Source of the DNA: Naegleria gruberi
Lineage: Eukaryota
DNA: 64,000 nucleotides
Strand: one strand, 5' to 3'
Assembly: GCA_000004985.1 (NCBI GenBank)
Contig: GG738859.1
Shown: positions 1 through 57,316 of the stretch, piece after piece
Layout: the number at the start of each line of letters is the position of its first letter
Numbering within the stretch: position 1 is the stretch's first letter
Translations under genes and position numbers: made by a program
The notes under the pieces: model-generated
Told to the model about the DNA's origin: nothing
Database searches by the model: none
Seen by the model: the letters and a program-made list of their open reading frames with translations, nothing else

Positions 1-586
1 ACGAGCAAATTCTTTCAATTGTCTCAAGAAGTAATTCTTAATTCTCATATCTGGATGAGCTACTTGCATAAAGGCAAGAGTACTCTCCAATGACCAAGAA
101 TATTTGAAAATAAAATAAGCAGCAATTAAAACACATGACCTGGAATTTCCATGAAATGATTGCACTAAAACACACTCTCCCTTTTCGAATGCTTGATCTA
201 TAAAATTGGCTACACGTGTAATATTTCTATCTCTACTATCAAGTAAAACGGTTGTTGGAACATCCCTCCAAGGAAACGTTAAATATTCAATTCCATGATC
301 AGCATATATATTTGCAGCTTCCAATCCAGCACAGTTTACTACATGGCTCACTTTGTTTGAAAAAAGGAATTCATCATCTTGTGCAGCAATAGAATTTCCT
401 ACAAATAGACCATCCATAATTCTGACTGCTAATAAAAGTGTAGGACCAGGAGTTTCTACTGGTACAAAGTGTGGTTGCTGTTGTTGGTTTCCAAAACTTC
501 TGGAATTAGTTATTGTATGGTTGAATAACCCTCCTCCAAAATCGGAGGAAGAATTATTAGCAACCTTTGATATAATATTATTCATC
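1..586 (-). CDS. dual-specificity phosphatase-like protein (DSPc fold); catalytic Cys replaced by Ser, so a probable pseudophosphatase; 3' end runs off the window
   Basis: Minus-strand reading frame from ATG (plus 584-586) to position 1 with no stop. Translation MNNIISKVANN...MDGLFVGNSIAAQDDEFLFSNKVSHVVNCAG...KGECVLVQSFHGNSRSCVLIAAYFIFKYSW. It matches the DUSP signature VxVHCxxGxSRSxxxxxAY except C->S and H->Q. It invalidates the overlapping plus ORF 353..610. Confidence 0.5.
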
Positions 587-720
587 AGAGACGATTATTT
601 CGCTGAATAGTCTGACTATCAATGATGTCCTTAATGATGGGTTTTCTCTACTACAGTTAGCTTACAAGTTGTATTTGTAAATAGAGGGAACGGCTACTGT
701 TATTTTTTTAAAATTTAAAA

Positions 721-951
721 ATGTTTTCCCGCCATCAAGCAACAAGAGTAGAGCTGAATCAAGATGATGTAGCAGAGTTTGAAAGGACGATACAGGAAAT
801 CGAAGATGAATTATCAAGAAACCAACAAGTAGAGTCCGATCAACAACAACAAGTAGATAATAATTTAAATATTCCTTCTTCATTAAATAATAGAATTGAC
901 CCAAATACAGATATTAGAATTGGTTATTCGGAACAACAAAGAAGATTTTAA
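721..951 (+). CDS. small hypothetical acidic/Q-rich ORF (76 aa); weak support
   Basis: ATG-initiated ORF in the spacer between two minus-strand genes. Its stop (949-951) abuts the stop of the AK6-like gene (952-954). No recognisable domain. Confidence 0.2.
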   Translation: MFSRHQATRVELNQDDVAEFERTIQEIEDELSRNQQVESDQQQQVDNNLNIPSSLNNRIDPNTDIRIGYSEQQRRF

Positions 952-1561
952 TTATTTTTGAATTTTGTTTTGTACAAGAGAAACAATGAATTCTGCATTA
1001 TTATTCAGATCCATTATTGTGATGTTTTGCTTTTCAAAAACAATTTCTGGTTTGTAACTTTCTTGAGCTTCATCCGAACAAACTTGGAAAATTTCGCAAT
1101 CAACATTTTCTTGAACTTTTTGTTCTGAATATCCTCTCTTTTCCAAACGTTTAAATAATACATCAGGATCACATCTTAAAACAATAACAAAATCAATCCA
1201 TCGTTCTGGGAATAATTCACTACTATGATAATCGATAACAAATCCCTTTTCCAAATCAGATAATTTTTCTTCTAAATGATCCAAAAGTTTATCTTCATCA
1301 AGAACATATGTATCTCTTTCACTATCGAATTCCTCAACAAATTGTTCACCTTTAGCAATTTCGGAAACATTCAAATATTCATAATTTGTTAAATTAAGTT
1401 TTTCCTTTAAAGAATTGATAACAGCTTCTCCCATAACAGTCTTTCCGACACCAGGGGTTCCTGTCTCATAACGATATGTTAGATGATGATTTACTTCAAT
1501 GTCCAAACTTACCTGTGATGAGGATATTTGGATAGGTACGAAGATCTGGTGATGTTTGCAT
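952..1561 (-). CDS. AK6: adenylate kinase isoenzyme 6 / Fap7-like nucleoside-triphosphatase; 2 exons (1513..1561 and 952..1460), 52-nt intron 1461..1512
   Basis: Spliced product MQTSPDLRTYPNILITG|TPGVGKTVMGEAVINSLKEKLNLTNYEYLNVSEIAKGEQFVEEF...DYHSSELFPERWIDFVIVLRCDPDVLFKRLEKRGY. It has the P-loop GTPGxGKT and the AK6/Fap7 layout. The intron is gtaagt...tctaacat...acag. The track ORF starts at GTG 1578 and reads through the intron. Confidence 0.7.
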
Positions 1562-1612
1562 TTTTTAATTGAATTCACTCAAAAATTATTTGAAGTGCCA
1601 AATGTTATTTAT

Positions 1613-3703
1613 TCAGTTTTCTTCATCACTCATGGTACCATGTTGTTCTTTTGTTAATACTTGATGATCTTGTTCCTCTTCTTGCTCTGACTCATCCTGT
1701 TCTGATCTATCCTTAGTATCTGAAAAGACATAGAGTATGTGACACTCTCCACGACCAATATTTTTCATACTATATGAATTGAATGGTGGAATATGAATTA
1801 CAGATCCAAGTTTCATTTGGATGGCTGGGTTTGTATGTACAACGACGGATGCCTGACCTTTCAAAATATATAAAACCTCAGATTGGGTACTAGTATTGGA
1901 GCTTGGTTTTATACCACCAGGTTGAATTATTATTGTTCCTACACCTACACCCTTCTCTGTCAATGAACTGTAGATTGAAAGTTGTGCTGTATCTTCATTA
2001 GCTTTGATGGTAGCATAACCACCAGCCTTAGTTTCATCCTTTCTGAATTTGAAATGTGAACTTTGATGCATTTGGGCAGTAGCATAAATTTTAACATCCT
2101 CCTCTTCGCCAAACTCATTCATAACTTTGTAGATTCCATCAGTTACATCACTAAGTGGATCAACTTTTCTCTTTCTTGGCTCTACAGGAGCCTTCTTCTT
2201 CTTTTCTGGTTCTGTAACAACTGGTTTGACTTTCATTAGTTTACCAGCTTCCTTAGGCAAAGGTCTTTCATTTTCCCAAAATTTACATGGTTTAGTGACC
2301 TTTCTTCTCAATCTAGAATCCACAGAGTTACTTGTTTGAATGCCCAATGGATCTGTTCCATTATCAACATCCTCATTTTGAGTGCTGATAAGTGTTGTAT
2401 TGAGCATATCATTTTCTTCTTCATTTTCACTAACAGCAGCATTGAAATCTTCGTCGTCTTTGTAAACCTTTTCATTCACTTCTTTGGCTTCCTCGTCGTC
2501 TGTTTCATCTACATTTTCTATATCTTTTAAAAGAGCTTCTCTGAGTACATATTTTTCTCCAATCAGCTCTGTTTGCTTTTGGGAAAGTTTTACTTCTTCA
2601 TCACGATAAAAGTCTCGCCCTAAATCCACATTAGATTTTTCCAGCTGAGTAGGTCCAATACCAGAGTCCTCTAGTGTTGCTTTCGGTTGAGAAGATTTAT
2701 CAGATTCGTATTCAGATTCTGATTCAGGTTCTGATTGAGGAAGCGATGCAGGGAAACTTTTAAGTGCTTGTTTTTGTTGCCTAGATTTTAAACTTCTTCT
2801 ATTTTCTCTGTCATCTGATTCATCGTCATCTTGTTCTTCCTCAGAGGATGAGGATTTCTCATAAATATATTTCTTTGTTTTCCTAGGTTCTGATATCTTT
2901 CTTTTCTTAGGTTCTGGTTGGAATGTTTGTTCCTCCTGCTCTTCAAAAAGATTATCGAATGCATGATCATCATCTAAGCCTCCTTGTTCAATATCAAATG
3001 TAGGTGTAGGTGTAGGAGGTGCAATGATATCTGCAGCTTCTGCTGGTTGTTCTTCTTCCCTGAAGGTGTCTAGAACTGGTGAAACAGGTGGTAGGGATAT
3101 TTTAGGTGAATCGGGTTTCTTAGGTTGCTTAATTGTGACAGTTGGTATTTTCACAGAAGTGTCATCCTCGGAAGATGATGTGACATACTCCATTGAAGTT
3201 TTATCAATTTTAAGAGCTTCATCTGGAGATTGTTCATCACCTGATGAACGAAAAGTAACAGCTGTCTTTGAGCTTAGCATACTCATGGTATCATCACTAT
3301 CATTCATAGTAATGTTTGATAATGACAATACACTCGATTGGTCATCTCTATGTAATTGTTGATTAAAGTTCTGATTATTGTTTGCTTCAAAGAAGGCATT
3401 CGGATCAACAGAGTCGGTATTTACAATTATTTGTCCAGATCTTTTACCAATATTTTGGAAAGCATTCTGTGATGCCAACACATCATCATAACCTTCTCTT
3501 TGGCGGGTTCGTGGAATATAACCAGTACCTTCTCTTGTTTGTAAGGCTGATCTTCTAGGTGCTCTTTCCGCAAATAGTGCTGCTGTTAATGATGCAGATG
3601 GTGGTCCCATTATTGGTGGTTGTTGGTTGTTGGCATTTGATGATGATGGTTGTTGGTTACTATTTGATGCCGAAGGGAAACCATCTTGTCTTTCATTATT
3701 CAT
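1613..3703 (-). CDS. CENP-C/Mif2-like kinetochore protein: long disordered acidic/Ser-rich region, CENP-C motif, C-terminal cupin domain
   Basis: ATG at plus 3701-3703; the track start 3718 is TTG. A CENP-C-like motif SRLRRKVTKPCKFWENERP lies at about 2215-2325. The C-terminal cupin-like block is IYATAQMHQSSHFKFRK...GYATIKANEDTAQLSIYSS...GTIIIQPGGIKPS...VLYILKGQASVVVHTNPAIQMKLGSVIHIPPFNSYSMKNIGRGECHILYV. Stop is TGA. Confidence 0.5.
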   Translation of the reverse strand: MNNERQDGFPSASNSNQQPSSSNANNQQPPIMGPPSASLTAALFAERAPRRSALQTREGTGYIPRTRQREGYDDVLASQNAFQNIGKRSGQIIVNTDSVDPNAFFEANNNQNFNQQLHRDDQSSVLSLSNITMNDSDDTMSMLSSKTAVTFRSSGDEQSPDEALKIDKTSMEYVTSSSEDDTSVKIPTVTIKQPKKPDSPKISLPPVSPVLDTFREEEQPAEAADIIAPPTPTPTFDIEQGGLDDDHAFDNLFEEQEEQTFQPEPKKRKISEPRKTKKYIYEKSSSSEEEQDDDESDDRENRRSLKSRQQKQALKSFPASLPQSEPESESEYESDKSSQPKATLEDSGIGPTQLEKSNVDLGRDFYRDEEVKLSQKQTELIGEKYVLREALLKDIENVDETDDEEAKEVNEKVYKDDEDFNAAVSENEEENDMLNTTLISTQNEDVDNGTDPLGIQTSNSVDSRLRRKVTKPCKFWENERPLPKEAGKLMKVKPVVTEPEKKKKAPVEPRKRKVDPLSDVTDGIYKVMNEFGEEEDVKIYATAQMHQSSHFKFRKDETKAGGYATIKANEDTAQLSIYSSLTEKGVGVGTIIIQPGGIKPSSNTSTQSEVLYILKGQASVVVHTNPAIQMKLGSVIHIPPFNSYSMKNIGRGECHILYVFSDTKDRSEQDESEQEEEQDHQVLTKEQHGTMSDEEN

Positions 3704-4036
3704 TTTTGAATTATTCAACTGTTATTACTATTAAATATTTGTTGATGAGTTATATGTTGTCGATGTTTGATGATTCTCAAAACACCCAATACTAACGACT
3801 AACTTGGGATTGGAGTGGTTTTAAACGAGCAACACGCGTAGATTTGCACAATTTAAATATTTTTTTCAAATTTGTAACGGTAAATAATAATTGCCAATTG
3901 TGTTAAATACTAATAATATTATTGTTTTGAATTATTACTTAAATATTCGTTTTATTTTATAATAAACAATAATTTACATTTCTAACATTAACTTCTTGCG
4001 TTGTCAATAATATTATTATTTGAAACAGTCTAAAAA

Positions 4037-5214
4037 ATGATCTCATCATCAAATGCAAAAAACGAAGATAGTGCCTCTTCGGAACTTCCTCTCCCAACAC
4101 CATCATTAGATTCATCATTCAAAAAGAAGGTTGTGGAGAGAAATTGGCTCAACCAAGAATCTGAAGGAATTGATGCTTTAGCAAAGATTGAATTTCTTCA
4201 TACAATTCCAGGAGAGAAACAATTAAAATTTGTACCAAGTGTAAAGGGCATATTAACCAATGCTGTTCACAAAATGGCACTTCAACTCACTCAACAACAG
4301 GATGAAATTATCAATGAAGCAATGAATTTTTCTGCAACTAGTTTGATTACACAAAGTGGATCTAAAGCCATGCTCATGTCAAATGCTGTTGGAGCTGCGG
4401 AAGAACAACACAGAGGATCAATATTTGTTAGTTTGAGTAATGCATCTGATTTTGATCCGAATATGGGATTTGATGCTATTAAATCCAAGTTAACAAAGAC
4501 TAATAGTATTATCACAAAGGATATTCAGGAAATGTTTTTAAAATCAATTCCTCCTTGGAATTTTGTTACACCACACCATAACTGGAAAGTAAGACTACAT
4601 GGAGATAGAGCTGTTGGTAAAACAACTTTACAGAAGAGTCTTTGTAGAATGGGTAAGTGAAATAATTTTATTGTCAAATTTTTGACATTTGAAAGATACC
4701 AATATTGAACAACACAGAAATCAACATTGTGATACTGTTGGATCAATTACAACAAATACATTAATACCAATCAAATGTATTGATTCTGTGAAATGGATAG
4801 AGCTAGAAGTGATCGATGTTGGTGAAGGATGTGCTATCAATAATCCAATTTATAATTCATGTAAGTAATTTATATTAAGAATATCACTAATATACTTTGT
4901 TGGATCTATAACCAGACAATGTTAATGATTTTCATGCCCATCTAGTCTTATTTTCCATGGGACATTTTCAAAGCTTCAAGAATGCCAAAAACAAAATCAA
5001 ACAATTGAAAAAACAAACCAACAATATTATAGTTGTTGCAACTAAATCAGATGCTTTCCAAAATTTCCAAGTTACAGACATTGACATTGCCACTCTAGTG
5101 AAGGAATTTGATTTAAAGACTGCAGTATGTCTAGTCAATAGTCATGCTCAATTCGGATCTGAAAATAGTACCTATACCATTGTGGAAGAGTTGGCCGACT
5201 TACTTTTGGCCTAA
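4037..5214 (+). CDS. atypical small GTPase-like protein with ~175-aa N-terminal extension; 3 exons (4037..4652, 4696..4860, 4946..5214)
   Basis: Introns of 43 nt (gtaagtgaaat...tttgaaag) and 85 nt (gtaagtaattt...cactaat...catctag) restore one frame. G-motifs present: G1 GDRAVGKTT, G3 DVGEG, G4 TKSD (for NKxD), G5 NSHA. The track shows the exons as separate ORFs 4037..4660 and 4957..5214. Confidence 0.5.
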
Positions 5215-5323
5215 CTTTCACTTTTGATTGTTTTATAGTGAAACTCTTTTAGCTTCCTTTGATGATAGGCTTTTTAGATCAAGGCTTTGAAATATTTCTT
5301 GTTACAGCACCAAGTAGAAAAAA

Positions 5324-8300
5324 ATGCCACCATCACGATTTAGAAAGGTAATTGAGGATGATGAAGAGGAAATTCCTACTACAAGAGAGGATGTGGAGAG
5401 TGAACAAATCAAAGGTAGGAAAACTGAGAAGAAAGGAGGAATCAAAAGGAAAATTGTAGAATCTGATGATAGTAGTAGCAGTGAAGATGAGTTGGACGAA
5501 AGGCTTGAGTTGACTGATGAAGACGATATCGAATCTCTTTCTTCCAGAGATTCACCTGTGGTAGAATATGATGACAATGATGAGGAGATGGAAGAATATC
5601 CACAGTATAATAGATTATTGGAGAGTAAGTTTGCATACTAGCAATTCATATAAAATCTCTTATATTCAAAGTTGAAAAGGCTATTCTTGATAAACTTGAA
5701 GGAAGGTCTTGTGATCAGCAATTGATAATTCACTCCATTGAGATGAAAAATTTCAAATCATACAAGGATAACACACTGGTTGGTCCTTTCACCACTGGAT
5801 TAAATTGTATCATTGGATCTAATGGATCTGGAAAGAGTAATATTATCGATTCGATTTGTTTTGTGCTTGGATTTGAGTCTAAAGAGTTAAGAGCTAAGAA
5901 TCTAGACTACCTCATCAATGATCAGTGTTCATCTGATGAAGAGTCATTTGTCAAAATCAACTTTAATGTGATGAATGGTAAGAATGATTGTTTCAAGCAG
6001 TTTAGTATTCAAAGAAAGATTAAAAGAAATGATCACACAAGCTCCTACCATCTCTCTTCACCAAATGAGGAATCCAAAAAGATAACAAAAAAACAAGTGA
6101 GGGAATTACTGAATGAGTATGGAATTGACTTTGATTATCCTGATAGATTTATTGTTATGCAACATAATACCATAAAGATGGTAAAGCAAAACCCTTTAGA
6201 AATGCTGTTCCATCTTGAAAAATTATTTGGTACTGATAGAGTTCAAATTGAAATTAAGCAAGTTCAGGAAGATATTACAAAGCTCAGATCCGATATTGAA
6301 ATACATGAGAAAGAAAAGAATGATTGTGAAAAGGATCTAGAGTTATTAAAACCTATAGTCGAACACTATCAAAACTTTCAAAAGTTAGAAAAAAAGGTGG
6401 AGGAGACAAAAGCATCCATAAAAGAGAGTGAGCTGAAATGCCTAACATTCAAACTAGACAAAAGCAAGAGGGAGCTAAAGTCAATTACTTCTGAAATATC
6501 TTCTTTAGAAAGTAATCGTTCAAACTCAAAGATAGAAGAACAGCAACTGAATGAAAGTACTCAGAAACAAGTAGAGAAAATGGACACCACAGAAAAGGAA
6601 CTAGACCAGATAAAGAAAGTCACATCCAAGATTCAAAAGAATCTACTGAGGGTAAGACTTGAGAATGATTCCTACAATCAAAAAGTTCAGCACTTTGAAA
6701 TGGAATTAGAAAGAACCTCAAAGGAGTCTATTCAATTAGGAGAGGAAAAGAACGATTTGAATGTAATGAATTGTCATACAGAGGAAGATATTAAGTATTT
6801 AGAGAATTGCATTAACAGTCTTGAAAATGAGATTAATAGATTGACATCAAACATAGATGATGAATCTCAACAAATATTGATAGATTTGCAAAGAGAATTA
6901 AACGAGATAGTAACAAGTTATCGTTATACAGCATTAACATCTCGTAGTGTTAAATTAAGGGAATTGGAGGAGCAGATCGAAATTTTGAATCAAACATTTG
7001 ATCAAAAACAAAAAGAGAAAGTGGGCTTAGAAAATTATATGGAAGAAATTTCTGAATTGAAGAAATTAGCAGACTCAGAAGCCAGCATATTAGGAGATAA
7101 CTTGAAGAGAGTCCAAGAATCAATAGAACTCAAAAAGAAGCAGAGAATCAAGATAGAAGATGAAATATTTGACTTAGAAACATCCTCGATTCAAAAAGAG
7201 GAAGTTAATTCTCTTTTTTTAGATACCATAAAGAAAATTAGATCAGGGATAGATGGATGTTTTGGAACAATTCCAGAGATTTATAGAATCACTGATCAGA
7301 AATATGCAGTTTCCGTAAACTCAGTGCTTCATCCTTATTTAAAGAATACAGTAGTTGTTTCAAGCAGAGAAGTGGCATTGAAGGTAGTGAAGTTTTTTGA
7401 AAATGATCGTGCAGGATTGGTCAGTTGTGAAATTCTAAATGAGCTGAAGTTGTTGCCAAACCAATCCAGCACTAATCCTTTAGAATTGAAGCCACTTATT
7501 GAAGTTCTGGAATGTGAGGCTCAATACAGACCCTTACTAGAAAAGCACACCCAAGGATGGTTCATTACTGATTCGATAGAATGTGCAATGAAATACTCAT
7601 ATCATAACGGCAAAAGAAGAAATATTGTTACTCTCGATGGAAAGATATTTAAAAGCTTTGGAGAAATATCTTGCCACTATTCCAAAGATACTACCCCTCA
7701 CCAGATCAGTACTCAGTATTCTAAACTCAATACAAATTATTCAGATCATAACAAAGACATTGAGTATTTGTCTATTTTGAAAAAAAAGTTTAAAGATCTA
7801 GAGGAAATATGTGAAAGTCTCATCATGTCAATGAATGACATTAAGCAATCCATATCAGAAAAGGAAGTATTAACAAGAAATTATCAATCCCAAATCAAAA
7901 AAATTGGCTCTTCACTCTCAACTCTTTCCAGAAAATTGATATCTATCAAGAAGGATTTAGAGAGCAAACAGGAAACCTTCAAAAATACTATTTTAGCTCC
8001 AACTGAGGAAGCAGAGTTATTAGAAATAGAGACAATCAAGAAAGAATTAGAAATGAAAATCCATACTATTGAGAGTGTCGATAACAGTGGAAATTCATTG
8101 CCGAACCTCAAGAAAACCTTGTCAGAAAAACAAAAGGAGCATACTGTACTCAACAAGTTAAAAGAAACACAAAGCAAGAGATTGAATCAAATATCAGCTC
8201 TATTATCAAACCTTGCAGCAAAAAGAGAAAAATACACTAATGAATTAGATATTTTCAGAAAAGAAAACAATCAAGAGGAATTAGATTCATTAGAATCAGA

Positions 8301-9204
8301 AGTAGACTCTCTGAAAAGGCAAAAAGGTAAACTCGAATCAAAAAAAGAGGATTATTGTAACAAATTAAAAGAATTCAGACGAAACATTAAAAAATTAAGC
8401 CAAATAATTAATGAGAAAGACCTTCAAATCTCTAGAAAAGTGCAAGATAAGGAAAAAATCCAAGAGGATATCGACGAGCTAAAGTTGTCCATTTCTAAAA
8501 TAGCACAAAGTAATATCTCTTTGAAAGTAGACACAAAACTAGACTTGGAATTAGAGGAAAGGAGAAGGCTCAAACTGATATCTGAGCTCAAGCACATAAA
8601 TTCAGAACTGGAAGGTATACAAGATAGTGTGGATAAAAATTGTTTAGAAAAACAATCAACAGCCAAGAAAAAGCTGAAATTCACTAATAAGAGGCTCAAT
8701 AGTATCAATCAAAGAATTGAGAGCCTCGAACTATTGGAGTCAAAATTTCTTACCTTACGATATGAATTGTTTCACAAGGTTATTTCCAAAATTAATGAGA
8801 ACCTCTCTCAAATATTCAGAGATTTGAATAACAACTCAAACTGCTACATTTCTTACTATGAAGACAAGAAGACATTATTTGAAAAGGGTGTCAATATTTA
8901 TTGCAAGTACGATTCAGAGTGGAAAGAGTTTAGTAAGCTGTCTGGTGGTCAGAAAAATCTGGTTTGTTCTGTTCTTTCTAAAGCGCTAATGAGATGTTTT
9001 TCAACCAGTATTTGTATCTTTGATGAATTATGTAGCAGTTTAGACACCATCAATGTAGAGAAATTAGCCAAGCTCATCAAAAGCAGCTCTCTCAAAACTC
9101 AGTTCATTTGCATATCATTCAAGTTTTACGAGAAGGCAGATCATATCATTGGAGTATACCACCAAAATGGTGTTTCTTGTACTGTCCCATTCTCTAATAA
9201 ATAG
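5324..9204 (+). CDS. SMC-family ATPase, condensin type (SMC2/SMC4-like), with probable acidic N-terminal exon (5324..5624) joined by a 47-nt intron (5625..5671) to the main exon (5672..9204)
   Basis: Main exon: LIIHSIEMKNFKSYKDNTLVGPF...CIIGSNGSGKSNIIDSICFVLG (Walker A). Long coiled coils. Hinge: GTIPEIYRITDQKYAVSVNS...VVVSSREVALKVVKFFENDRAGLVSCEIL. C-terminal LSGGQKNLVCSVLSKAL...ICIFDELCSSLD (signature plus Walker B). The first ATG in the main frame (5743) would remove the conserved N-terminal strand, arguing for the spliced 5' exon MPPSRFRKVIEDDEEE...YNRLLE (acidic, as in SMC4 N-extensions). The track start 5722 is TTG. Confidence 0.55.
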
Positions 9205-37125: not shown

Positions 37126-37198
37126 GCCGACATAGCTCAGTTGGGAGAGCGTAAGACTGAAGATCTTAAGGTCCCTGGTTCGATCCCTGGTGTCGGCA
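37126..37198 (+). tRNA. tRNA-Phe (anticodon GAA), 73 nt, no intron
   Basis: GCCGACATAGCTCAGTTGGGAGAGCGTAAGACTGAAGATCTTAAGGTCCCTGGTTCGATCCCTGGTGTCGGCA. It folds as a cloverleaf and is near-identical to metazoan-type tRNA-Phe (recalled from memory). There is one U-U mismatch in the T stem. A TTTT terminator lies 3-6 nt downstream. Confidence 0.9.
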
Positions 37199-49597: not shown

Positions 49598-49670
49598 TCC
49601 CCCTTAGCTCAGTCGGTAGAGCGTCAGACTGTTAATCTGCAGGTCGGTGGTTCGAGCCCACCAGGGGGAG
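49598..49670 (+). tRNA. tRNA-Asn (anticodon GTT), 73 nt, bacterial/organellar-like sequence type
   Basis: TCCCCCTTAGCTCAGTCGGTAGAGCGTCAGACTGTTAATCTGCAGGTCGGTGGTTCGAGCCCACCAGGGGGAG. Cloverleaf with a 7-bp acceptor stem (U1-A72), D arm GCTCAGTCGGTAGAGC, anticodon loop CUGUUAA, T arm GGTGG/TTCGAGC/CCACC. There is one U-C mismatch at the top of the anticodon stem. TTTT lies 8 nt downstream. Confidence 0.75.
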
Positions 49671-57242: not shown

Positions 57243-57316
57243 TGCCTCCCTTGGGAATCGAACCCAAGACCTCTGTCTTACTAGGACAGCGCTACTGCCA
57301 ACTGAGCTAGGAAGGC
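57243..57316 (-). tRNA. tRNA-Thr (anticodon AGT), ~73 nt
   Basis: Reverse complement GCCTTCCTAGCTCAGTTGGCAGTAGCGCTGTCCTAGTAAGACAGAGGTCTTGGGTTCGATTCCCAAGGGAGGC. It has a 7-bp acceptor (one G-U), anticodon stem CTGTC/GACAG, loop CTAGTAA and T arm TTGGG/TTCGATT/CCCAA. The D-stem pairing was not resolved. An oligo-T terminator lies downstream on the minus strand. Confidence 0.85.

Follow-up and report, generated by a model that had tools for sequence, protein, structure and literature searches.

A gene on the minus strand of Naegleria gruberi contig GG738859.1 (assembly GCA_000004985.1), at positions 1613..3703 of the 64,000-nucleotide stretch analyzed here (the window), encodes what I take, with a probability of about 0.93, to be the single-copy CENP-C (Mif2/Cnp3) ortholog of this organism, a scaffold of the inner kinetochore. 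The protein has the architecture of the family: a possible Mis12-type motif near the N-terminus, an acidic, Ser-rich and mostly disordered linker, a CENP-C motif, and a C-terminal non-enzymatic cupin. An initial annotation, made from the letters of the sequence, had proposed a CENP-C homolog, and that call is supported by the CENP-C_C profile, by fold search, and by conservation of the motif in orthologs. Its description of the protein as highly divergent went too far, since standard profiles find it. The identification was already known, as set out below, and the present work is a confirmation of it, not a discovery. The minor additions are the possible Mis12-type motif, the deviations of the CENP-C motif in Heterolobosea, and a set of islands conserved within the lineage.

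CENP-C joins centromeric chromatin to the microtubule-binding outer kinetochore, and it is probably the sole such link where the rest of the constitutive centromere-associated network (CCAN) is apparently missing. In Naegleria, whose spindle is made of divergent, mitosis-specific tubulins, CENP-C is therefore useful as a kinetochore marker and as an entry to centromere mapping, a value that has already been realized.

The gene and its product

The gene is a single intron-free open reading frame (ORF) of 696 codons plus a stop codon; it begins with the ATG at 3703 and ends with the stop at 1613-1615. An in-frame TTG at 3718, upstream of the ATG, is merely the start chosen by the ORF finder; the public gene model begins at the ATG. 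The complete coding sequence yields a product identical (100% identity, 100% coverage) to the public N. gruberi protein NAEGRDRAFT_79152 (EFC46326.1, XP_002679070.1, UniRef100_D2V9X5), which appears in the databases as "hypothetical protein NAEGRDRAFT_79152" and in UniRef as "Mif2/CENP-C cupin domain-containing protein". N. gruberi is a member of the Heterolobosea (Discoba), and the window is gene-dense, with a G+C content of about 33-36%. An antisense ORF of 112 codons (3024-3362) lies entirely within the CENP-C coding sequence and was taken as spurious. Coordinates given below for parts of the protein are window positions on the minus strand.

The C-terminal cupin

The Pfam family CENP-C_C (PF11699) matches residues 580-659 (1727..1966) with 35.9 bits, as against a gathering cut-off of 29, over positions 6-84 of the 85 in the profile. 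Two other families pass their thresholds within residues 580-668, Cupin_2 (29.3 bits; threshold 27.2) and Cupin_1 (24.7; threshold 22), and CENP-C_C is the best-scoring family on the C-terminus. The block that had been described as cupin-like is therefore a cupin, with three Pfam families above cut-off, and the CENP-C_C profile search that had been proposed as a check comes out above the curated threshold.

When chains in the PDB were searched with the single sequence, the best match was the cupin of Schizosaccharomyces pombe Cnp3 (6O2D), and chicken CENP-C (7BY0/7X85) and the Mif2 cupin (2VPV) were also found. A profile was built from five heterolobosean orthologs, namely the N. gruberi protein and four other full-length homologs, and against the PDB it matched Mif2 (7ON1; E-value 5.6e-11), Cnp3 (3.3e-10), the Mif2 cupin (7.5e-10), and chicken CENP-C (5.5e-5).

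The fold leads to the same proteins. An AlphaFold2 model of the full-length protein, from an alignment of 3 sequences, has a mean predicted local distance difference test (pLDDT) score of 40.5, and because this model is poor, the C-terminal 235 residues were predicted again for the fold search. In the resulting model the barrel has pLDDT values of 65-81, and the nearest folds found by Foldseek in the PDB are the cupins of chicken CENP-C (7x85; E-value 1.7e-7), Cnp3 (6o2d; 1.9e-7), and Mif2 (2vpv; 8e-6), so that the comparison with the Mif2 cupin that had been suggested also favors CENP-C. The Drosophila CENP-C cupin is in the same list, at rank 50. Identity to the fungal CENP-C cupins is only about 20-24% in the fold alignments, and those to the chicken and S. 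pombe cupins extend over 142-150 columns, exceeding the barrel core.

What lies beyond the core is a pre-cupin extension (residues 523-556; 2036..2137), a conserved region of predicted beta strands (residues 60-67, 73-80 and 90-94 of the C-terminal fragment) in which G523, V527, E534, I539, T542, M545, F551 and D556 are invariant in the five orthologs. With these strands included, the cupin occupies about residues 523-661. By the cupin motif definitions of the established literature, the motif 1 skeleton (residues 596-616) contains no His at all, and in motif 2 (GSVIHIPPFNSYSMKN) Phe and Tyr occupy the Gly and His positions. Since the positions of the metal ligands of enzymatic cupins lack His, the barrel, a presumed dimerization module of the CENP-C/Mif2 type, is not an enzyme. 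The protein ends in an acidic tail (residues 662-696; 1616..1720), for which the AlphaFold2 models predict a helix at low confidence; Asp and Glu account for 15 of the last 46 residues.

The CENP-C motif

About 100 residues separate the motif RRKVTKPCKFWENER from the cupin downstream of it. All five heterolobosean orthologs share the core of the motif unchanged, and chicken and yeast have CENP-C motifs that align with it. The CENP-A-nucleosome-binding signature as a whole extends over residues 465-481 (LRRKVTKPCKFWENERP; 2261..2311), within which RRKVTKPCKFWENE represents residues 466-479 (2267-2308). HMMER pairs the Naegleria motif with RTKRIRLKPLEYWRGER of chicken and with RVKVA-PLQYWRNEK of yeast Mif2. 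The alignment to chicken CENP-C covers both the motif (RTKRIRLKPLEYWRGER against RLRRKVTKPCKFWENER; also RLRRKVTKPCKFWENERP against RTKRIRLKPLEYWRGERV) and the cupin. The alignment to Mif2 contains a one-residue gap between the basic part and the Pro, an apparent insertion in the heterolobosean motif.

Nine residues of the motif are invariant in the five orthologs (L465, R466, T470, P472, C473, N478, E479, R480 and P481), and the aromatic pair is F or Y followed by W or F, giving the heterolobosean pattern L-R-x-[KR]-[VL]-T-x-P-C-x-[FY]-[WF]-x-N-E-R-P, with an invariant Cys after the Pro. The conservation that the initial annotation had looked to in related genomes is thus present, the core being invariant in N. 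fowleri and in three other heterolobosean sequences.

From the CenpC set of van Hooff et al., the motifs of nine species outside the Heterolobosea were made into a profile, which was run on all 536 six-frame segments of the window. It ranks the CENP-C ORF first, with 8.8 bits, the runner-up scoring 1.0 bit. The motif is convincing despite this weak score because of its conservation and its position relative to the cupin. No second copy of the motif was found, the next-best stretch in the motif scan scoring -3.2 bits.

The feature that marks the family, basic residues followed by P-x-x-[YF]-W-x-x-E-[RK] on the N-terminal side of a cupin, is present with two deviations, the apparent insertion and a Leu in place of a Ser. 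The motif proposed in the initial annotation is accordingly real, and the best match in the window, but it does not literally fit the consensus that had been written for it, in that the serine of RRSxR is a leucine. P0010 and P0020, two non-heterolobosean proteins that share the architecture (matches of the phmmer search described below, in which PF11699 is not confirmed), have a like spacing, with R at -6 and K at -4 relative to the Pro. Given its presence in these proteins too, the re-spacing of Arg and Pro was treated as variation rather than as a sign of a new mechanism.

Homologs and gene order

The four other full-length heterolobosean homologs are 32-40% identical to the N. gruberi protein and comprise XP_044569834.1 of N. 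fowleri, a protein from a JGI metagenome contig, and two further representative proteins. Against PF11699 the orthologs P0005 and P0006 score 44-51 bits, and precomputed Pfam annotation also lists that family for P0002 and P0003. A word-indexed search with the C-terminal 204 residues found no match, not even the protein itself, and exhaustive phmmer was used instead. With residues 462-696 as query against 1.84 billion representative proteins, it returned 38 matches at E ≤ 1e-3, at least 12 of which run from the motif to the cupin. PF11699 was found in 9 of 10 matches tested, one of which also carries the fungal Mif2_N domain.

The order of genes around CENP-C is common to N. gruberi and N. fowleri: an AAA_18 gene (adenylate kinase 6/Fap7-like), CENP-C, a Ras-like gene, and an SMC gene. 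This shared microsynteny argues that the CENP-C genes of the two species are orthologs. In the window the AAA_18 gene lies at 952-1578 (minus strand) and the SMC gene at 5722-9204 (plus strand); the N. fowleri locus (L001) covers 394-9099.

The N-terminal motif and the disordered linker

Residues 86-105 (GKRSGQIIVNTDSVDPNAFF; 3389..3448) resemble the motif by which other CENP-C proteins bind the Mis12 complex, with the form G[KR][KR][ST]G … D..[FW][FW]. Within the segment GKRSGQ…DPNAFF, the residues G86, K87, R88, P101 and F105 are invariant in the five orthologs, and the segment aligns with GR[KR]TG…D.[FW]F of CenpC proteins from a chytrid, Acanthamoeba, stramenopiles, and fungi. A profile-profile comparison by hhalign gave P=1.2e-4. 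The N-terminus has no match to Pfam Mif2_N, and a phmmer search of PDB sequences with the N-terminal 103 residues also found none, so the case for a Mis12-type motif is made by the alignment and the hhalign comparison, which point to a possible relationship. In yeast and human CENP-C, the equivalent N-terminal region binds the Mis12 complex.

The first 460 residues contain 20.4% Asp plus Glu and 18.0% Ser plus Thr, and nearly all of them have pLDDT values below 50 (in an alignment of just 3 sequences). Composition and low pLDDT therefore agree with the long acidic, Ser-rich disordered region that had been described. Three islands of conservation stand out from this fast-diverging linker. The first is Ser-rich (residues 120-147, DDQSSVLSLSNITMNDSDDTMSMLSSKT; 3263..3346), with the pattern S[VA]LS.S.[IL]T..DSD....[MF][IL]S[ST]KT in the orthologs and ten invariant residues (S124, S127, S129, T132, D135, S136, D137, S144, K146 and T147). 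Compared by eye with the regions following the motif in nine other CenpC N-termini, it showed only vague likenesses (DMSMLS in P0021 among them), and I make no claim from these. The second, ME.VTS[ST] (residues 171-181; 3161..3193), has M171, E172, V174, T175 and S176 invariant. The third, RDFY.DE…EKYV.RE (residues 363-389; 2537..2617), has Y366, E369, K384, Y385 and R388 invariant and runs into a predicted acidic helix; AlphaFold2 places helices at 367-376 and 388-426, with pLDDT 52-66. No known motif could be assigned to any of the three, which are candidate sites of lineage-specific interaction or phospho-regulation.

Earlier identification of Naegleria CENP-C

The FASTA files of orthologs from van Hooff et al. 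(EMBO Rep 2017; PMC5579357) contain the identical sequence under the name Naegleria_gruberi_NGRU013898_CenpC. In August 2026, a preprint by Kennard et al. (bioRxiv 10.64898/2026.08.18.745565) described a rabbit antibody whose antigen was residues 1-295 of XP_002679070.1, the very protein encoded by this gene. The antibody stains punctate nuclear foci that co-localize with CENP-A and follow the DNA and the spindle microtubules through mitosis. The same preprint reports mitotic up-regulation of CENP-C mRNA and an apparent loss of the CCAN of Naegleria, CENP-T included, a situation for which it draws a parallel with Drosophila. The handle on the kinetochore that the initial annotation had offered is therefore not new: CenpC was listed in 2017, and the 2026 preprint employed it to mark kinetochores.

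Proposed function and alternative readings

By analogy with the rest of the family, the protein may work as follows. The cupin would form a homodimer, as do its homologs in 2VPV, 6O2D and 7X85. In each protomer an Arg of the motif (R466 or R467) would dock on the acidic patch of H2A/H2B, and F475/W476 would touch the hydrophobic C-terminal tail of CENP-A, contacts that would anchor the dimer to the nucleosomes of the centromere. The N-terminal motif may then recruit the Mis12 complex and hence the microtubule-binding machinery of KNL1/Ndc80. With the rest of the CCAN apparently absent (according to the preprint), CENP-A chromatin and the outer kinetochore are probably bridged by CENP-C alone, the arrangement seen in Drosophila.

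Several observations weigh against the identification as CENP-C or against parts of it. The CENP-C motif by itself scores weakly against the nine-species profile (8.8 bits), it departs from the canonical form in having Leu where RRSxR has its serine, and the Arg that is invariant in Heterolobosea lies 6 residues before the Pro, not 5. The N-terminal motif has an hhalign probability of only 55% and lacks a Mif2_N match. Confidence in the structural models is modest, the barrel having pLDDT 65-81 with an alignment of 3 sequences. Finally, western blots with the antibody were inconclusive (bioRxiv 10.64898/2026.08.18.745565), and its specificity therefore rests on the co-localization.

Might the protein be a generic cupin, an enzyme or a binder of small molecules with no role at the kinetochore, in which a basic and aromatic stretch resembles CENP-C by chance? 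In favor of this, Cupin_2 and Cupin_1 also exceed their Pfam thresholds, the Foldseek list includes many cupins of bacteria whose TM-scores are similar, and the motif alone is statistically weak. I find the idea barely credible, nevertheless, because CENP-C_C is the top-scoring family, the best matches in both sequence and fold are all CENP-C cupins, and the His ligands for metal are missing. Moreover, the motif has a core invariant in the five orthologs and lies at the distance from the cupin that is typical of the family, and an antibody to the protein co-localizes with CENP-A (bioRxiv 10.64898/2026.08.18.745565).

A different possibility accepts the protein as a true CENP-C but one with rewired contacts, whose altered motif reads CENP-A in a non-canonical way and whose lineage-specific islands at residues 120-147, 171-181 and 363-389 make the contacts with chromatin or the outer kinetochore for which other organisms use the CCAN. 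The lack of the RRSxR serine and the one-residue gap relative to Mif2 before the Pro speak for it, as do the islands, which are strongly conserved in a fast-evolving linker and have no known counterpart, and the reported absence of the CCAN (bioRxiv 10.64898/2026.08.18.745565). But the motif has kept its aromatic pair, its Pro, its NER tail, and at least one Arg, and the protein co-localizes with CENP-A as canonical binding predicts. The spacing of R at -6 and K at -4 may be ordinary variation, considering that it occurs also in P0010 and P0020 (PF11699 not confirmed). I therefore judge a rewired CENP-C very unlikely. The related proposal that the centromeric nucleosome is read by a re-spaced motif (Arg at -6, no RRSxR serine, Cys after the Pro) and that the islands, acting as new interaction modules, offset the missing CCAN strikes me as doubtful; if it were true, the inner kinetochore of Naegleria would be mechanistically distinct and not just reduced. 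A CENP-C of the ordinary kind, as described above, is the reading that I prefer.

Comparison with known CENP-C proteins

The fungal proteins S. pombe Cnp3 and Saccharomyces cerevisiae Mif2 (6O2D, 2VPV, 7ON1) have the same order of parts as the Naegleria protein, from the Mis12-type motif (a possible one in Naegleria) to the cupin. They are its best sequence matches among solved structures and are among its top fold matches. The Naegleria protein differs from them in having no match to the Mif2_N profile and no recognizable AT-hook or PEST-type CCAN-binding regions, and its motif differs in lacking the serine of RKS/RRS and in the one-residue gap relative to Mif2.

Chicken CENP-C (7BY0, 7X85) aligns with the Naegleria protein in both motif and cupin, and its cupin is the top Foldseek match. 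Vertebrate CENP-C has, in addition, a second part that binds nucleosomes, the "central region", as well as binding sites for CENP-HIKM and CENP-LN, whereas in Naegleria the CCAN has apparently been lost and a second copy of the motif was not found.

In function there is a parallel with Drosophila (6XWU), which has CENP-A and CENP-C with neither CCAN nor CENP-T, as Naegleria apparently does, so that CENP-C alone bridges to Mis12/KMN. The cupin fold is common to the two proteins, although the two lineages, which are unrelated, lost the CCAN independently. The Drosophila protein has about double the length of the Naegleria one, and the chaperone CAL1 is a further partner of its cupin; no partner like CAL1 is known in Naegleria.

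Upstream region, neighboring genes, and other features of the window

A divergent intergenic region of 333 bp (3704..4036) is shared by CENP-C and the Ras-like gene on the plus strand and is presumed to contain the promoter. The only copy of ACGCGT in the 64-kb window, a sequence recognized by MluI and similar to the MluI cell-cycle box (MCB), is found here, at 3834-3839, some 130 bp ahead of the start codon of CENP-C. By chance, 0.63 copies are expected, and at least one copy was present in 46 of 100 shuffled sequences. The sequence is absent from the CENP-C ortholog loci of N. fowleri and of the metagenome contig, upstream regions included. I considered ACGCGT as a cell-cycle element of the mitosis-up-regulated CENP-C gene and rejected it, given a count that chance predicts and its absence from two ortholog loci.

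The divergent neighbor (4037-5214, plus strand) is in two ORF pieces, 4037-4660 and 4957-5214. Behind a long N-terminal extension it has a P-loop, GDRAVGKT, and a TKSD box, but it matches nothing in Pfam at E ≤ 1e-3; its syntenic counterpart in N. fowleri has a faint match to Ras. The neighbor probably encodes a divergent GTPase of the Ras-like kind and is interrupted by an intron near 4660-4957. Between it and the SMC gene lies a small ORF (5324-5641, plus strand) encoding 105 highly acidic and Ser-rich residues with no match in Pfam, which may be a small gene in its own right or else belong to a neighbor as its 5' exon.

Elsewhere in the window, the sole matches by Rfam or ARAGORN are three genes for transfer RNA: Phe-GAA (37126-37198) and Asn-GTT (49598-49670) on the plus strand and Thr-AGT (57243-57316) on the minus strand.

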